Shown in pieces: positions 39,046 to 62,677 of a stretch of 64,000 nucleotides of DNA. Positions within the stretch are counted from its first letter, which is position 1; each line of letters begins with the position of its first letter. This stretch comes from an uncultured Acidobacteriota bacterium (GTDB lineage: Bacteria; Acidobacteriota; Thermoanaerobaculia; UBA5066; DATFVB01): assembly GCA_963813155.1 (NCBI GenBank), contig CAWEYG010000005.1, forward strand, positions 75,524 through 139,523, read 5' to 3'. The notes below the pieces were generated by a model that was not told the DNA's origin, ran no database searches, and saw only the letters and a program-made list of their open reading frames with translations. The translations under genes were made by a program, and so were the position numbers.

Positions 39046-40137
39046 CTAGAACGTTTTGACGAGATCGAACAGGTATCGGTTCAAATAATGCGATCGATCC
39101 TGCCGCCGCTGAAAGACGACGGAAGGCCGAATCTCGACGCCCGCGACCACCGTGTAGGCGATTCCCACGCGGTGTCCGACGTACCAGGAGTGAAACCACC
39201 AGTCGTCCGTGTTGTAGGCACCGACGACGGCGTCGCGGTCGACGTACTGGTAGATCTCGAAGGCCTGGAAATCTCCCCGGTCGCCTTCCCGCCCGACCCG
39301 AATCGCGGCCTCGAATCCGTCCCTGTACGCGTTTTCGCTCGCCGCGAGATTTCGCGTCCAGTCGAGCGACAGGGCTACCGGAACCTTGGCGACACCGAAC
39401 CGGACCCTGGCCAGTGAATCGACGATTCGGAAATCGTCCAGATATGCCGGCGCGGCGGCGGAGGTCACGTTCTGGCGGAGGAAATGCAGCGCGGTCTTCT
39501 GAAGATGAGTGAACCTCCAGTAACTCTCCGACCAGTCGAGCGCGAAAGAATCGGCGTCTCCGAAGGCCCACGTCACCTGGCCCGCTCCGATGTGGGAATC
39601 GTCGTGTTCACGCTGAGGGCCGTAAAAAAAACCTCCGGCGATGCTGACCGAGGACGTCGCCGAGAAGGCAATCCGCCACGCCGCCGATCCGCCGAGCACC
39701 TGGACGTCGTGGTCCCACAACATTTCGGTCGCCCGCAGGGGCATGCCGAACTTGCCCGCGGTGATCGTGAAATTCCCCGGCCGCGCCTCGAGGAAGGCGC
39801 GGTCGAGCGCGGCGTTGTTCGACCGGTAATTGTCCAGCAGCCGGTCGTTGGTGGCGTTGGAGTCCGACGAAAGCTCGCCGAGGAGACGGACGCCCAGGCG
39901 AAAACGATCGGAAGCGCGCCAGTCGAGCTCCGGCCGGACTTCCGATCGCCAGCGGTAGATGTTGGGCGCCGGCGCCTGCCGGGCAAGCTGGATGTCGTCG
40001 TATCGAAGGAGCGCGTCCCAGCGAAACTCGAACCCCTCCGTGGACGTCGGGGCTTCATAATGCGGCTCGGCTTCCTGTCCTGAGAGGCGGGTCGCGAAGG
40101 CGACGATGAGGAAAAGGACGGCCGGGCGAACCCTCAC
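39046..40137 (-). CDS. Outer-membrane beta-barrel protein (putative porin) with signal peptide
   Basis: Signal MRVRPAVLFLIVAFATRLSG; alternating amphipathic beta strands; C-terminal ...YLFDLVKTF; GTGA overlap with the kinase gene stop. Confidence 0.6.
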   Translation of the reverse strand: MRVRPAVLFLIVAFATRLSGQEAEPHYEAPTSTEGFEFRWDALLRYDDIQLARQAPAPNIYRWRSEVRPELDWRASDRFRLGVRLLGELSSDSNATNDRLLDNYRSNNAALDRAFLEARPGNFTITAGKFGMPLRATEMLWDHDVQVLGGSAAWRIAFSATSSVSIAGGFFYGPQREHDDSHIGAGQVTWAFGDADSFALDWSESYWRFTHLQKTALHFLRQNVTSAAAPAYLDDFRIVDSLARVRFGVAKVPVALSLDWTRNLAASENAYRDGFEAAIRVGREGDRGDFQAFEIYQYVDRDAVVGAYNTDDWWFHSWYVGHRVGIAYTVVAGVEIRPSVVFQRRQDRSHYLNRYLFDLVKTF

Positions 40138-42275
40138 GCCGTCACTTCCGAAAGCTCCTTGTTCATCTCGGCGATGGACTGATATCGCTGATCGGGATCC
40201 TTCTCGATCGCTTTCATCACGATCTTTGCGATGCGGGGATCGATTTCGGGATATCTCGTTTCGATCGCCGGGGGTTTTTCCTGGATGTGTTTGAGAACCA
40301 CGCCGAGGGCCGAGTCCCCCTCGAATGGCAGCGTTCCGGAGAAGAGCTCGTAGAACACGATCCCGGCCGAATAGATGTCGGTCCGATGATCGAGAGTGCC
40401 CCCTTTCGCCTGCTCCGGCGAGATGTAGTCCGGCGTTCCGACGACCATCCCGGTCGCGGTCATTCCCTTGTCCTGGGAAAGCCGCGCGATGCCGAAATCC
40501 ATGATCTTCAACCCGCCGTTGGGTTCGATCAGAATGTTCTGCGGCTTGATGTCTCGGTGAATGACGCCCGCGGCGTGCGCGGCCCCCAGTCCTCCGCAGA
40601 TCTGCTTCGCGATCCGGAGCGCGGCCCCGACCGGCAGCCGGCGGTTCTGGTTGAGCAGGTGCTTGAGCGTGATTCCGCGCACATACTCCATCGACAGGTA
40701 GCGAAGGCCGTCCGATTCCCCGAAATCGTGCGTCCGCAGGACGTTTCGGTGGGTGATTTTCCGCGCGAGACGGATCTCCTGCTTGAAACGGTCGATGAGC
40801 GTCGCGTCGTGGGCGAGAGCCTCGTTTCGGAGCACCTTGATCGCGACCGCGTCGTCCAGCGTGCGATCGTGGGCCTTGTAAACGATTCCCATGCCTCCCG
40901 CGCCGAGCTCCGATTCGATGTCGTAGCGGCCCGCGAAGAGAGCACCGACTCGGGGCGCGTGGCCGCCGGCCGCCGAGGACGCCGGCACGGTGGCCGCCAT
41001 CGCGACGGTCTTCTGCGGCGCGATTCCCCCCATCGTCAGGGAAGCAAGCTGCTTTTCGAGCTCCGCCTTCTCCTTGAGCTCCTCGATCATCATTCGGAAG
41101 GATCGAGCGAGGATTCCGATCTCGTCTTTCTGCTCGACCGGCAACGGCACGTCGTAGTTCCCGTCGCGGACCGCGTCCGTCGCGGCCACCATTTCGCCGA
41201 TCGGTCCCGTCATGCGCCGGGCGAGGATGTAGGAAACGAGAAAGGCCACGAGGAGAGCGCCGAACCCGACGATCAGGAGGGTCTTTTCGATCTCGCGAAA
41301 GGCCGCGAGCTCGCGGGACAGCGGGCGCACCGTGACGACGGATCCGACGACGAGGCCCGAGGCGAGCCGCAACGGCCAGGCGAGGGCCAGGTAAGTGTCC
41401 TCTCCCGTGTCGATCGACAGCGGCCCGGCGACTCTTCCGTGCTGGAGGACCGCGGACACGAGATCTTTTCGGGACTCGAGCGTTCGAAAAAACGGTTTCG
41501 TCGCGATTCCGAGCGTCGAGGCGGCGACCTGGATGCGGGGCTCCTGCGACGGCTGGCTCAGGTTCGCCAGGAAGACCGCGTCGGTCGACGAAACGTCCCG
41601 AAAATTCTCGGCCACCTTGTCATCGATCGCGAAGCAGGCAACCAGGACCCCGAGCGTTTCGGCTTCCCTTCCCTCGCCCGAGACGACCGGGGCGGCGACG
41701 GCATGGTAGAGCTTTCCGTCGGAATACCAGATGCCCTGAGTCTCGGCCCCCTCGAGCGCCTTGCGGACGAGCGCCGAATCCGAAATGTCGTGCCGCCACT
41801 CCCTCTTGTCGCTCCGGACGATCGAGATTCCGCGGGGATCGGTGACGATCAGGAAATCGGCGCCGGTCGCGGAGGCCTGGTCTTCCTTCAGGCTGTTGAA
41901 GATCGTGGCGGCGTCCCCCTCGTGGACGAGCGCTTTGAACCCGGAGTTGTCCACGACGGGACGCAGGGCCCGGTGGAGCTTCTCGTAGCGGTCTTCCTGG
42001 AAATTGTCGTAGGAATCCTTCGCGCGCGAAAGCGCCTTCCGGCTCGACTGTTCCGCGATCGACCGCACGCGATAGCTCGAAACCTCGACGGCGGTGCCGA
42101 GCGCGAGAAACACGAGCGCCGCGACGGCGAGAAAGATCTTGATCGTCAGCGAGAATTTCGGCTTCTCCGAGCGGACGGGAGGTTCGGGCACCGGTACGGC
42201 GCTGGTCATCGCCGCCGAGGCGGTTCCGGCGCCGATACGGGTCGTTTTCTGCGGATTGACCGTGGGTCCGGCCAT
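40134..42275 (-). CDS. Transmembrane sensor Ser/Thr protein kinase with periplasmic sensor domain and HAMP domain
   Basis: TM1 FSLTIKIFLAVAALVFLALG, ~330-aa periplasmic domain, TM2 LLIVGFGALLVAFLVSYILA, HAMP RRMTGPIGEMV...RSFRMMIEELKEK, kinase motifs GAGGMGIVYKA...AIKVL...HRDIKPQNIL...DFGIA...GTPDYISPE. Confidence 0.88.
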   Translation of the reverse strand: MAGPTVNPQKTTRIGAGTASAAMTSAVPVPEPPVRSEKPKFSLTIKIFLAVAALVFLALGTAVEVSSYRVRSIAEQSSRKALSRAKDSYDNFQEDRYEKLHRALRPVVDNSGFKALVHEGDAATIFNSLKEDQASATGADFLIVTDPRGISIVRSDKREWRHDISDSALVRKALEGAETQGIWYSDGKLYHAVAAPVVSGEGREAETLGVLVACFAIDDKVAENFRDVSSTDAVFLANLSQPSQEPRIQVAASTLGIATKPFFRTLESRKDLVSAVLQHGRVAGPLSIDTGEDTYLALAWPLRLASGLVVGSVVTVRPLSRELAAFREIEKTLLIVGFGALLVAFLVSYILARRMTGPIGEMVAATDAVRDGNYDVPLPVEQKDEIGILARSFRMMIEELKEKAELEKQLASLTMGGIAPQKTVAMAATVPASSAAGGHAPRVGALFAGRYDIESELGAGGMGIVYKAHDRTLDDAVAIKVLRNEALAHDATLIDRFKQEIRLARKITHRNVLRTHDFGESDGLRYLSMEYVRGITLKHLLNQNRRLPVGAALRIAKQICGGLGAAHAAGVIHRDIKPQNILIEPNGGLKIMDFGIARLSQDKGMTATGMVVGTPDYISPEQAKGGTLDHRTDIYSAGIVFYELFSGTLPFEGDSALGVVLKHIQEKPPAIETRYPEIDPRIAKIVMKAIEKDPDQRYQSIAEMNKELSEVTA

Positions 42276-42277
42276 CG

Positions 42278-42985
42278 TCAGTAACGATCCTCGTCCTGTG
42301 GCGGAGGCGGGTATTCCTGCCCGTACTTGTTCTTGTGGGCCTGCGGCTTGAACCCCGAAACGTCGAGCGAGAGAGAAGCGATGGCAGTCTTCCGCGGGGA
42401 AACCTGGACCCGGGCGCTCGTCTCGCCGCCCTCGTCGCACCACGCCTTGATCGTCTTCTCGCCGTCGGGCACGTTCTCGAAAGTGAACTCCCCGTCGGCG
42501 TCCGTCACGGCGAAAAACGACGAATCGACGACTCGGATGAAGCCGATCATCTGCGGGTGAATGTTGCAGTAGACGCGCACGAGGCCCGGCGTTTCGAACT
42601 TCTTGTCCTTCGAGCGTCCCCGGCGGTAGAGCCCGAGGTCGAAGTGGTTCTCCGCGGAAACCGAGAAAACGTTGTGGAAGAGGGGGTCCTCGTTCGGAAA
42701 GGCGACGCTGTGGCCGACCTCGACGGCGATCACCTTCGGCGTGAATTTCTTGTGCAGCGATTTCATCGCCGGCCCGGGTTCGGCCGCCGGCGAGGGCGCG
42801 ATTCCGGGAGCCGCGCCGGGCCGCCGCGCGCCTTCGATCCAGATCACGACGTTGGCCGCTTCCGCGCGAGCCTGCCCGTTTTCGACGAGCGAAACTCTGC
42901 CGCTGACCGTTCCGGCGGAAAGCGCACCCGCCGACGCCACGAGCACCGGGAGGAGCCGTAGGGTCCGCGCAGCCGGGGACTTCAT
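42278..42985 (-). CDS. Secreted cupredoxin (type-1 copper site) domain protein with carboxypeptidase-regulatory-like beta-sandwich
   Basis: Signal peptide; candidate copper ligands HSVAF...FHNVF and YCNIHPQM (Cys-x2-His-x2-Met); stop lies 2 nt before the kinase start. Confidence 0.6.
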   Translation of the reverse strand: MKSPAARTLRLLPVLVASAGALSAGTVSGRVSLVENGQARAEAANVVIWIEGARRPGAAPGIAPSPAAEPGPAMKSLHKKFTPKVIAVEVGHSVAFPNEDPLFHNVFSVSAENHFDLGLYRRGRSKDKKFETPGLVRVYCNIHPQMIGFIRVVDSSFFAVTDADGEFTFENVPDGEKTIKAWCDEGGETSARVQVSPRKTAIASLSLDVSGFKPQAHKNKYGQEYPPPPQDEDRY

Positions 42986-43041
42986 TGTCGCGGATCATAA
43001 CAGTCCTTGACGCTTTCTTTCCACGCGATTACGCTGCTCCA

Positions 43042-43260
43042 ATGGCTTCGGAACCCGTTCTCATCTTCGGCAAGGACACGTGACCGTACACTTCGGCGGC
43101 CCGTGCGGACTACGCCCGACGAAAGGTTCCCTTCGAATACGTCAACGTGAAGGCTTCCCGGGAAAACATGGACAAAATGCTCGCCTACAGCGAAGGTAGC
43201 CGTGAGGTTCCCGTGATCGTCGAGGACGGACGGGTCACGACCGGATTCGGCGGAACCTGA
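43042..43260 (+). CDS. Glutaredoxin-like (YruB/NrdH-type) small protein with an in-frame TGA at the first active-site cysteine position: candidate selenoprotein (U-P-Y-T), or a point-mutated pseudogene
   Basis: MASEPVLIFGKDT[TGA 43081-43083]PYTSAARADYARRKVPFEYVNVKASRENMDKMLAYSEGSREVPVIVEDGRVTTGFGGT* reproduces the Grx fold pattern (CPYC position, VPxxxI/V, GF). A hairpin begins ~11 nt downstream of the TGA. Confidence 0.45.
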
Positions 43261-43368
43261 GGCGTCTGACACCGTCCGCGGTTCGCGGATTTCCTAGACT
43301 CGAACAGCCTCCCATGTTAAAACGCTCGGAGTCTCAGTACGGGGTACTAGCCGAGGAGGGAAGCTCGT

Positions 43369-45387
43369 ATGGCCAAGACCGAAGCCCCGGCCGCGGAGTT
43401 CCAGCCCTACGTTCCGTCGAATCAGTCTCCGCCGGAGTTCACGGCGAAGGCCATCATCCTCGGCTCTTTCTTCGGCCTTCTGTTCGGCGCGGCGACCGTG
43501 TATCTCGCGCTGCGGGCGGGGCTCACCGTGTCCGCGTCCGTCCCGATCGCGGTGCTGTCGATCGCGGTCTTCAAGAAGCTCGGAAAATCGACGATTCTCG
43601 AGAACAACATCGTCCAGACGATCGGCTCCGCCGGCGAATCCGTCGCGGCGGGAGTCGTGTTCACGGTCCCGGCGCTGCTTTTTCTCTCCAACGGCGCCGA
43701 CTATTTCCGGTACGGAACGATTTTCGTGCTTTCCGCGATCGGCGGAGTTCTCGGCGTGCTGTTCATGATCCCGCTGCGCCGGGCGCTGATCGTCAAGGAG
43801 CACGGGAACCTGATCTATCCGGAGGGGACCGCCTGCGCCGACGTCCTGATCGCGGGCGAGCGGGGTGGCGACCTCGCGAAGATGGTCTTCAAGGGCGTCG
43901 GCGCGGCCCTGCTGTACAAGTTCCTGTACGGCATCATCGGCCTCTGGAACGAGACCGCGCTCTGGTTCAAAACGGACAAGAACGGCAAGATCCCCGACGC
44001 GACGTTGAATTGCGACGTGACGCCGGAATACCTGGGCCTCGGCTACATCATCGGTCCGAAAATCGCCGGCGAGCTGGTCTCGGGCGGCATCCTTTCCTGG
44101 CTCGCGCTGATTCCGCTGATCTCGATCTTCGTGCCGGAGCCCCGGCTCGTGCAGGATCTGACGAACCTCGGTTTCTCAGAAGGATGGCGCGCGTCCCACT
44201 CGCACGCGGAGTGGATCTACCGCGCCTATGTTCGTTACATCGGCGCGGGAGCCGTCGCCTGTGCAGGCGTGATGACGCTGATCAAGACCTTGCCGACGAT
44301 CGTCTCGGCATTCCGAGAGTCGGTCAAATCGATGCGCGGTGGCACCGGAGAGGCGAAGAAGATCCGAACCGAAGACGATCTCGGGATGGGATGGGTGATC
44401 GGTGGATCGGTCGTCCTCGCGCTCCTGATCACGGTCCTTCCCCATTTTCCGCACGGCCCGTTCCCGGGCTCTCTCGTCACGGGACTTCTCGTCGTGGTCT
44501 TCGGCTTCTTCTTCGTGACGGTCTCGTCCCGCATCGTCGGCATCATCGGGACTTCGTCCAATCCGATCTCGGGAATGACGATCGCGACGCTGATGGCGAC
44601 GTGCGTCGTTTTCGTCCTGCTCGGACGCACGGGAGACATCTTTCAGCCGGTCGCGCTCTGCGTCGGCGCGCTCGTCTGCATCGCGGCCGCGAACGCGGGC
44701 GCCACGTCGCAGGACCTGAAGACGGGATATCTCGTCGGCGCGACGCCGCGCAGCCAGCAGATCGGCTTCATCATCGGCGTGCTCGTTTCGACCGTGGCGA
44801 TCGGCGGAACGCTCTTCCTTCTCGACCACACCTACCGCGGCGTGGGTGAGCTCCACGGGATCGGCGGGGCGAAGATGCCCGCGCCGCAGGCGACGCTCAT
44901 GGCGACGATCATCAAGGGGCTGCTCGCGAAGAACCTGCCCTGGGCGCCCGTGCTCGTCGGCGCGTTCCTCGCGTTCATGGCGCAGCTCGCCGGCGCCCAC
45001 GCGCTCTCCTGGGCAGTCGGGGCGTATCTTCCGGTCTCGACGACGTTCCCGATCTGGATCGGCGGCCTGATGAAAGCTCTCGCCGACAAGATGAGCCGCC
45101 GGAAGGAAGAGTCGGAGCTCTCCTCCGGAATGCTCTACGCGACCGGCCTCGTCGCCGGCGGATCGCTCGGAGGCGTGGCGATCGCTCTCGTGACGGCATC
45201 CGGGGACCTCCCGTTCCTCAAGAGGCCACTGGAGTCCCGCGGAGGGCTCATGAACGTGCTGAACCTCGGGGATCGATGGTACGCGGCGTTGAAAAATGGC
45301 GTCGGGGGCCAGATCCTCTGCGCCGCCGTGTTCGCGGTGCTCTGCGTGTTGCTCGTCCGCAACGCGCGAAAGGACCTGGAAGCATGA
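43369..45387 (+). CDS. OPT family oligopeptide transporter
   Basis: 672 aa, about 16 TM segments; RBS GAGGAGGG upstream. Confidence 0.88.

Positions 45388-62592: not shown

Positions 62593-62677
<85 letters not shown>

Follow-up and report, generated by a model that had tools for sequence, protein, structure and literature searches.

Within the window analysed here, a stretch of 64,000 nucleotides from contig CAWEYG010000005.1 of an uncultured Acidobacteriota bacterium, a short reading frame on the forward strand encodes a glutaredoxin-like protein that is interrupted by in-frame TGA codons. The frame starts with an ATG at 43042, and its first in-frame TGA is codon 14 (43081–43083), which takes the place of the first active-site cysteine codon, as had been pointed out in the original prediction, a reading of the bare sequence that proposed a selenoprotein. 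Upon read-through, the 72-residue product (with selenocysteine, Sec or U, entered as cysteine) matched the Pfam profile Glutaredoxin PF00462 with E = 9.1e-11 (42.2 bits, cutoff 22.9), in agreement with the glutaredoxin-like character claimed for it. The active-site motif reads U-P-Y-T (residues 14–17), with threonine at the position of the resolving cysteine, a replacement that had been recognized from the outset. The next in-frame TGA is found at 43258–43260, where the gene had been thought to end after 72 residues. This codon is followed by GGC GTC TGA, however, which moves the end of the coding sequence to 43269, places a second putative Sec at residue 73 and gives a product of 75 residues, MASEPVLIFGKDT-U-PYTSAARADYARRKVPFEYVNVKASRENMDKMLAYSEGSREVPVIVEDGRVTTGFGGT-U-GV. 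The C-terminal tail reads ...GGT-U-G-V-stop, with the second Sec three residues from the end. The gene and two candidate selenocysteine insertion sequence (SECIS) elements are laid out as follows.

43042–43269, + strand: complete coding sequence of 75 codons plus TGA stop; matches NCBIfam family NF041114 and has the same layout in 34 distinct relatives.
43081–43083, + strand: UGA-1, predicted selenocysteine 14 of the U-P-Y-T motif, at the position of the nucleophilic glutaredoxin cysteine; TGA in 22 relatives, TGC or TGT in 15.
43093–43119, + strand: SECIS-1, predicted hairpin inside the coding region; lower stem 43093–43098 with 43113–43119 (C43117 bulged), upper helix 43101–43102 with 43107–43108, loop GUGC at 43103–43106.
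43258–43260, + strand: UGA-2, predicted selenocysteine 73, the family-defining U of 'UXX-star'; TGA in 34 of 34 distinct complete relatives.
43261–43269, + strand: Gly74, Val75 and the true stop TGA (43267–43269), sequence GGC GTC TGA, assigned from the 3′ ends of the relatives.
43274–43290, + strand: SECIS-2, predicted hairpin in the 3′ untranslated region (UTR); 7-bp stem GUCCGCG/CGCGGAU (43274–43280 with 43284–43290), loop GUU at 43281–43283, nucleotides 24–26 counted from the U of UGA-2.

The 75-residue product (U as C) matched NCBIfam NF041114, 'UXX-star selenoprotein family 1', over the entire profile (1–70 of 70) with 119.5 bits (cutoff 72, E = 5.1e-35). A search of a large protein collection yielded 509 homologues, several of which carry the NCBI name 'UXX-star (seleno)protein family 1'. 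Nearly all of these database homologues have C-P-Y-T as their active site and end at ...GFGGT, because gene callers stop at TGA. The closest ones, P0001 and P0002, were 78–79% identical to the window protein. In both JGI entries, tryptophan (W) stands for codon 14 and closes the protein, while the underlying DNA (L001, 2343–2561, and L002, 993–1211) has TGA at both W sites, followed by GGC GTC/GTT TGA. The nearest metagenomic relatives of the window gene (L003 and L020) showed 89–93% identity. Other members with Sec at residue 14 are probably missing from or truncated in protein databases; hidden in this way, cut short or stored with W, they would bias the apparent predominance of Cys14 forms.

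Compared with the NF041114 family, the window protein has the same length, C/U-P-Y-T motif, GFGGT-U-x-x-stop tail and both Sec positions, and nothing substantive differs. With UXX-star families 2 and 3 (NF041211, NF047338) and the HUGP/GUXX-star fusion (NF045501) it has in common a Grx-like domain ending in U-x-x-stop, but the cross-matches to these profiles were weak (49–55 bits, far under their cutoffs of 97–325 bits), and unlike the NF045501 fusion the window protein stands alone, lacking the HUGP domain. The Grx3 equivalog profile TIGR02181 gave 34.1 bits against a cutoff of 90, which places the protein outside the classical dithiol glutaredoxins, and the NrdH and YruB profiles gave 29.2 bits (cutoff 85.75) and 36.1 bits (cutoff 88.55), respectively, the protein having U-P-Y-T where both of these families have CxxC. 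The family itself has already been catalogued: in Table 1 of Zhang et al. 2026 (PMC13188914), NF041114 is listed as 'Distant Grx-like protein 1' with the motif UxxT, two Sec and the representative WP_258313609.1, and is classed as 'predicted with high confidence', outside the 'experimentally verified' list. The same authors cite the GOS paper for this family, but the table of that paper has only a UxxC 'Grx-like' family. Peng 2016 and the BSepDB paper mention neither UXX-star family 1 nor Acidobacteria.

For the comparison of both UGA codons we assembled 45 related loci, of which 17 stem from species-representative genomes, 26 from metagenomes and two from JGI contigs. Codon 14 was TGA in 22 distinct genes and TGC or TGT in 15. 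The original prediction had proposed to align homologues at exactly this position and had held that orthologues with TGC, together with a downstream hairpin that is not conserved, would speak against Sec; TGC is indeed present in some of them, but TGA is present in 22, and a mixture of this kind is the classical signature of Cys/Sec exchange. The TGA genes span Acidobacteriota, Thermoanaerobaculia, Ca. Udaeobacter, Deltaproteobacteria, Ca. Methylomirabilis, Vicinamibacterales and Anaeromyxobacter. Their downstream reading frame is intact, with strong amino-acid conservation and no other stops or frameshifts, and identities among related TGA-bearing contigs ranged from 58 to 93%, that is, they represent no single clonal artefact. 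Furthermore, Sec and Cys forms were interleaved: the Sec form L008 is 83% identical to the Cys form L006, and the Anaeromyxobacter Sec form L018 is 75% identical to the Cys form L019 of the same genus, whereas no other Sec form exceeds 58% identity to it. Of the three Anaeromyxobacter genomes in the set, L018 has TGA as codon 14, and L015 and L019 have TGC. This pattern implies that Cys and Sec have been exchanged repeatedly at codon 14.

Reassignment of TGA to an ordinary sense codon for Trp or Gly (genetic code 4 or 25), which the two W residues stored by JGI for each of the two closest homologues might suggest, is already refuted, since 18 of the 24 window reading frames of at least 250 codons with high GC content at third codon positions terminate in TGA, relatives carry Cys and neither Trp nor Gly at the homologous codon, and no reassigned code is known from the lineages involved (Acidobacteriota and others).

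Downstream of UGA-1, a hairpin formed by UUCGGCGG and CCGACGAA (43092–43099 with 43116–43123) had originally been drawn, with an apical GU at about the distance typical of bacterial SECIS elements. This pairing can be formed with seven of eight pairs, one G·A mismatch and −5.1 kcal/mol, but it is absent from the minimum free energy (MFE) structure of the 60 nucleotides following UGA-1, and its register is not conserved. Moreover, folding of these 60 nucleotides was unremarkable (z = +0.87), with 164 of 200 shuffled sequences at least as stable. The thermodynamic case for the UUCGGCGG/CCGACGAA pairing was dropped, as it lies outside the MFE structure and the region folds at chance level for a GC content of 65%. 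What stood was the apical GU, since G23 and U24 (numbered from the U of UGA) are located in the GUGC loop of SECIS-1, an element embedded in codons 18–26. Within the window, the SECIS-1 model had an energy of −7.3 kcal/mol, compared with −5.1 kcal/mol for the earlier pairing and −10.8 kcal/mol for an unrelated MFE structure.

The evidence for SECIS-1 is comparative. Among the 22 Sec-form genes, codons 20–22 are GCC (22/22), CGU (21/22) and G-N-G, with third-position entropies of 0, 0.27 and 0 bits, whereas the 15 Cys-form genes use the same Ala-Arg-Asp/Glu codons freely (1.56, 1.55 and 1.00 bits). The frozen bases pair as C21–G28 and C22–G27 around a G23-U24-G25-N26 tetraloop or, equivalently, as C20–G28 and C21–G27 around CGUGN. 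The upper helix can be formed in every Sec-form gene (22/22) but in only four of the 15 Cys forms, and the GUGN loop occurs in 21 of 22 and 3 of 15, respectively. Both features together were found in 21 of 22 Sec-form genes and in one of 15 Cys-form genes (Fisher p = 3.5e-8). The genes compared share ancestry, but the Sec forms come from no fewer than six separate lineages. Most Sec-form genes individually fold, by MFE, into the apical hairpin atop a lower stem of 4–9 bp. This lower stem varies in sequence and register: in the acidobacterial clade, for example, it consists of GGCG/CGCC and CGUC/GACG with a bulge, and in the Udaeobacter group of UCGGGAG/CUCCCGA; three genes (L013, L040, L043) have an extended upper helix in its place. 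Because lower-stem registers differ between lineages, RNAalifold recovered almost no consensus from the ungapped Sec-form alignment (−1.3 kcal/mol), and the explicit model was scored instead. Judged from these alignments, the conserved CC-GUGN-GG apical hairpin marks Sec-form genes, and essentially only those.

One locus, L038, is a Cys form (TGC at codon 14) that keeps the full SECIS-1 signature at 2049–2105, with the C21–G28/C22–G27 helix and a GUGA loop. It may represent a recent Sec-to-Cys conversion in which the SECIS has yet to decay.

These data bear on the proposal, already raised as the alternative in the original prediction, that the TGA represents damage to what was once a Cys codon, either a nonsense mutation in a dead gene or a sequencing or assembly error. 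A single C/T-to-A change would create such a TGA, most database homologues do have TGC or TGT at this position, and no Sec machinery is visible within the window. Nevertheless, 22 distinct genes, spread over several phyla, share this TGA, are conserved downstream of it and have 15 counterparts with TGY, and therefore these genes are no pseudogenes; in addition, a hairpin signature specific to the TGA genes is conserved at synonymous sites, and Sec and Cys forms alternate among close relatives. By this comparison codon 14 is a classical Cys/Sec pair, a pseudogene or sequencing error is ruled out and the alternative effectively refuted, and the central claim of a selenoprotein with UGA in place of the first active-site cysteine is borne out by the homologous TGA genes and by the Sec-form-specific hairpin.

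We then considered the 3′ end. Wherever the 3′ end was complete (34 distinct genes), the UGA-2 site was TGA, and precisely two sense codons separated it from a stop. The dipeptide after UGA-2 is GV in 21 genes, EV in eight, GI in three and HV and SV in one each, written in 18 different codon/stop combinations. This conservation of dipeptides in the face of synonymous variation indicates that the stretch past UGA-2 is translated. The final stop is TGA in 26 of the 34 relatives and TAA or TAG in the other eight, and in these eight the U-x-x-stop reading is therefore unambiguous. The NF041114 profile includes the last three residues, and their addition raised the score of the window protein from 110.4 to 119.5 bits.

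The stop codon is closely followed by a second hairpin, SECIS-2. In 32 of 35 distinct genes, a perfectly paired hairpin (at least 6 bp, loop centre 19–29 nucleotides after UGA-2) was detected, compared with 13% of random 52-nucleotide windows and 13.5% of all TGA trinucleotides from the same DNA. The stems are unrelated between lineages, but the loop contained a G in 34 of 34 hairpins of at least 5 bp and was mostly GGU(C), GUC, GUU or GGC. A SECIS in the 3′ UTR is unusual for bacteria and typical of families with a C-terminal Sec. A consensus scan called no intrinsic terminator at SECIS-2, and no T-run follows the stem.

Could UGA-1 alone encode Sec, with the TGA at 43258 acting as the true stop of a 72-residue product, GGC GTC TGA left untranslated and the hairpin serving as a terminator or mRNA-stabilizing stem? 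A stable hairpin just past the end of a gene does resemble a terminator, and the database proteins all end in ...GFGGT. These endings, however, reflect the behaviour of gene callers at TGA, and the hairpin, besides lacking a T-run and a terminator call, has a loop whose distance from the TGA is constant and which invariably contains a G. Together with the two sense codons and stop in 34 of 34 genes, the dipeptides conserved via many synonymous codon pairs and the gain in profile score, this makes a single-Sec product very improbable.

Binding by SelB depends on G23/U24 and on their distance to the UGA. For comparison, the SECIS of Escherichia coli fdhF was extracted and folded; its GGUC loop occupies nucleotides 22–25, while the GUGC loop of SECIS-1 occupies 23–26 and the GUU loop of SECIS-2 24–26. 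In each case the hairpin comes directly after the UGA and bears G23/U24 in its apical loop. Differences lie in the stems, which are unrelated, in the upper helix of SECIS-1, which has 2 bp and an internal loop where fdhF has the bulged U17, and in the location of SECIS-2 in the 3′ UTR. By analogy with established bacterial Sec decoding, SelB-GTP-Sec-tRNA(Sec) would bind each apical loop and deliver Sec to the UGA about 20 nucleotides upstream. The third TGA, at 43267, would act as a stop because it is too near the SECIS-2 loop, 15–17 nucleotides away as opposed to about 23. The TGAs at 43258 and 43267 are thus presumably read differently through their distance to the same loop. At 43258–43269 and at most related loci, two UGAs stand 9 nucleotides apart, Sec first and stop second; such a pair lends itself to testing the spacing rule in a short natural sequence. 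When the window was crudely searched for additional in-frame TGAs flanked by coding-like sequence, only noise and no second selenoprotein candidate emerged.

For structural analysis, an AlphaFold2 model was computed for the Cys-form homologue P0003 (74% identical, without the last three residues) from a 30-sequence alignment. It reached a mean predicted local distance difference test score (pLDDT) of 87.4, with strands at residues 6–10, 31–35, 58–61 and 64–67 and helices at 15–26 and 40–50. Foldseek matched this model to an Archaeoglobus fulgidus Grx (3IC4, template modelling (TM) score 0.84), NrdH (1H75, TM 0.80), the mixed disulfide of E. coli Grx3 with glutathione (3GRX, TM 0.79) and the clostridial cGrx1 (7C10/7C12). 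In a sequence alignment to E. coli Grx3, residue 14 corresponds to Cys11 and Thr17 to Cys14, while the V-P of VPVIV represents the cis-Pro motif; the family-invariant residues include I8, F9, G10, D12, C14, P15, Y16, T17, P57, G68 and G71. According to the model, the protein is a minimal glutaredoxin fold (beta-alpha-beta-alpha-beta-beta) without a C-terminal helix, in which Sec14 sits where helix 1 begins, and the Gly-rich tail that carries Sec73 is flexible. The same fold (TM 0.74–0.79) is seen in the classical dithiol glutaredoxins (E. coli Grx3, 3GRX/1FOV) and in the UxxC selenoprotein glutaredoxin of clostridia (cGrx1, 7C10/7C12); residue 14 falls on their nucleophilic Cys, and the cis-Pro V-P and the preceding Lys are kept. 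Unlike them, the window protein has Thr for the resolving Cys, no C-terminal helix and a second chalcogen on its tail. Model and alignment suggest that the nucleophile and the substrate groove of glutaredoxins were kept, that the resolving Cys and the C-terminal helix were lost and that a Sec-bearing Gly-rich tail was gained.

Glutaredoxins have a loop with a GG motif behind strand 4, which borders the glutathione site beside the active-site Cys. The tail of the window protein follows a conserved G-F-G-G segment that aligns to this post-strand-4 loop at the glutathione groove, a placement from which Sec73 should be able to reach residue 14. With residue 14 it could then close an intramolecular bond, which would be a selenenylsulfide where relatives have Cys14 and a diselenide where, as in the window protein, residue 14 is Sec. 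The assignment of the protein to the monothiol relatives, made when its end was placed at 43260, overlooked this partner, as Sec73 is the likely counterpart of residue 14. Sec14 and Sec73 would constitute either a self-contained two-electron redox centre or a two-selenolate site for a soft metal or metalloid.

Two other Sec proteins invite comparison. Mammalian thioredoxin reductase also bears Sec near the end of a flexible Gly-rich arm, whose Gly-Cys-Sec-Gly shuttles electrons to and from a buried redox centre, but the likeness is an analogy only: the reductase is a large flavoenzyme in which Sec pairs with the Cys next to it, and its mRNA has a SECIS of the eukaryotic 3′-UTR type. SelL, a Prx-like selenoprotein with the motif UxxU, forms a diselenide (Shchedrina et al. 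2007, PMC1955791, as cited in PMC2398784). Like the window protein it has two Sec in one thioredoxin-fold redox site, where a natural diselenide is possible; in the eukaryotic SelL, however, the two Sec are three residues apart within one helix turn, while in the window protein they are 59 residues apart, joined by the tail, and the diselenide is only proposed.

Taken together, we assume that the gene is an ordinary member of NF041114 in its two-Sec form, in which both UGAs are decoded as Sec by way of SECIS elements and Sec14 and Sec73 form a redox or ligand pair. We put the probability of this whole explanation at about 0.88. Several points weigh against it. Homologues of SelA, SelB and SelD were not found by tblastn with E. 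coli queries in the 64-kb window and about 380 kb of related loci, nor was a tRNA-Sec in the 64-kb window. Rfam had no match for the region at gathering or permissive thresholds (E up to 10). The SECIS-1 model of the window (−7.3 kcal/mol) differs from the MFE structure (−10.8 kcal/mol), and the folding z-scores of both hairpin regions are unremarkable in DNA of 65% GC, the support being comparative. The P0003 model was built without the last three residues, and its tail is of low confidence (pLDDT of about 48 in the last block). Finally, no member of the family has been characterized experimentally (Zhang et al. 2026, PMC13188914).

Concerning the role of the Sec pair, two proposals were weighed. 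The first is an intramolecular Sec14–Sec73 diselenide, which would make the protein a natural bacterial diselenide redox protein of very low redox potential, with independent Cys-to-Sec switches at residue 14 selected for that chemistry. We advance this idea tentatively. The published sources consulted neither state nor test it and offer only 'metal-binding ligands or unknown substrates'. The second proposal leaves the gene and its two Sec unchanged but regards the protein as non-catalytic, with the two selenolates acting as chelators or carriers of a soft metal or metalloid, be it Hg, As, Cu or selenium itself. A metal or metalloid site is favoured for UXX-star proteins by Zhang et al. 2026 (PMC13188914), sister families are fused to proteins with metal-related names or occur next to them, and the resolving Cys and C-terminal helix of catalytic glutaredoxins are missing. 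On the other hand, no metal-resistance or metal-transport gene recurs beside the gene in the 45 loci, and the glutaredoxin active-site geometry is fully kept (K-D-T-C/U-P-Y, cis-Pro V-P). We regard a metal carrier as a possibility, though a rather doubtful one.

The gene neighbourhood does not decide between the redox and metal readings. In the window, the order of genes is a dCache/HAMP Ser/Thr kinase, a secreted CarboxypepD_reg protein, the Grx-like gene, an OPT transporter and an amidohydrolase. This order is kept only within the close acidobacterial clade, and across the 45 loci no neighbour recurs between phyla, that is, there is no universal partner; the neighbours in other lineages are unrelated, for instance an aminoglycoside-phosphotransferase-like kinase and a LolA-like lipoprotein (both by sequence reading). 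The OPT-family oligopeptide transporter (43369–45387, + strand, Pfam OPT E = 7.9e-90) adjoins the Grx-like gene in the acidobacterial clade, where it stays adjacent even when it lies on the other side and inverted (loci L002, L025, L027). Some OPT transporters carry glutathione, and by analogy a functional link between the transporter and the Grx-like gene is conceivable.

Upstream, a 954-residue reading frame on the reverse strand (40134–42998) proved to be an over-extension. The real gene there encodes a 712-residue dCache/HAMP Ser/Thr protein kinase (about 40134–42272), and a separate secreted protein of 235 residues with a CarboxypepD_reg domain is encoded at 42278–42985, divergent from the Grx-like gene. 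A single sigma-70-like promoter match (42994–43023, reverse strand) points leftward to the 235-residue gene; no consensus promoter for the Grx-like gene was found in the divergent intergenic region. The only tRNA gene of the window is a tRNA-Leu(GAG) at 62593–62677 (+ strand).

In conclusion, the gene is a real two-Sec selenoprotein of an already catalogued family. The original call was correct, in that a recoded UGA was picked from raw sequence by a reader without tools, but it concerned something already known and is no discovery. The blind spots of the unaided reading were two, the second Sec behind an apparent stop and a hairpin drawn in the wrong register. As such, the gene enlarges a catalogued, uncharacterized family by one member and opens no new question. 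What novelty is left lies in a natural Sec14/Sec73 diselenide and in the repeated Cys/Sec switching at residue 14 with gain or loss of a SECIS. For the latter, the CC-GUGN-GG hairpin provides a simple discriminator between Sec14 and Cys14 forms and a natural experiment on a SECIS being written into, and erased from, coding sequence. If the diselenide proposal were true, the Cys-to-Sec switches in Anaeromyxobacter, in the Udaeobacter/Eisenbacteria group and in the acidobacterial clade would reflect selection for diselenide chemistry in particular niches, and each switch at residue 14 would also have required a SECIS to evolve inside codons 18–26.

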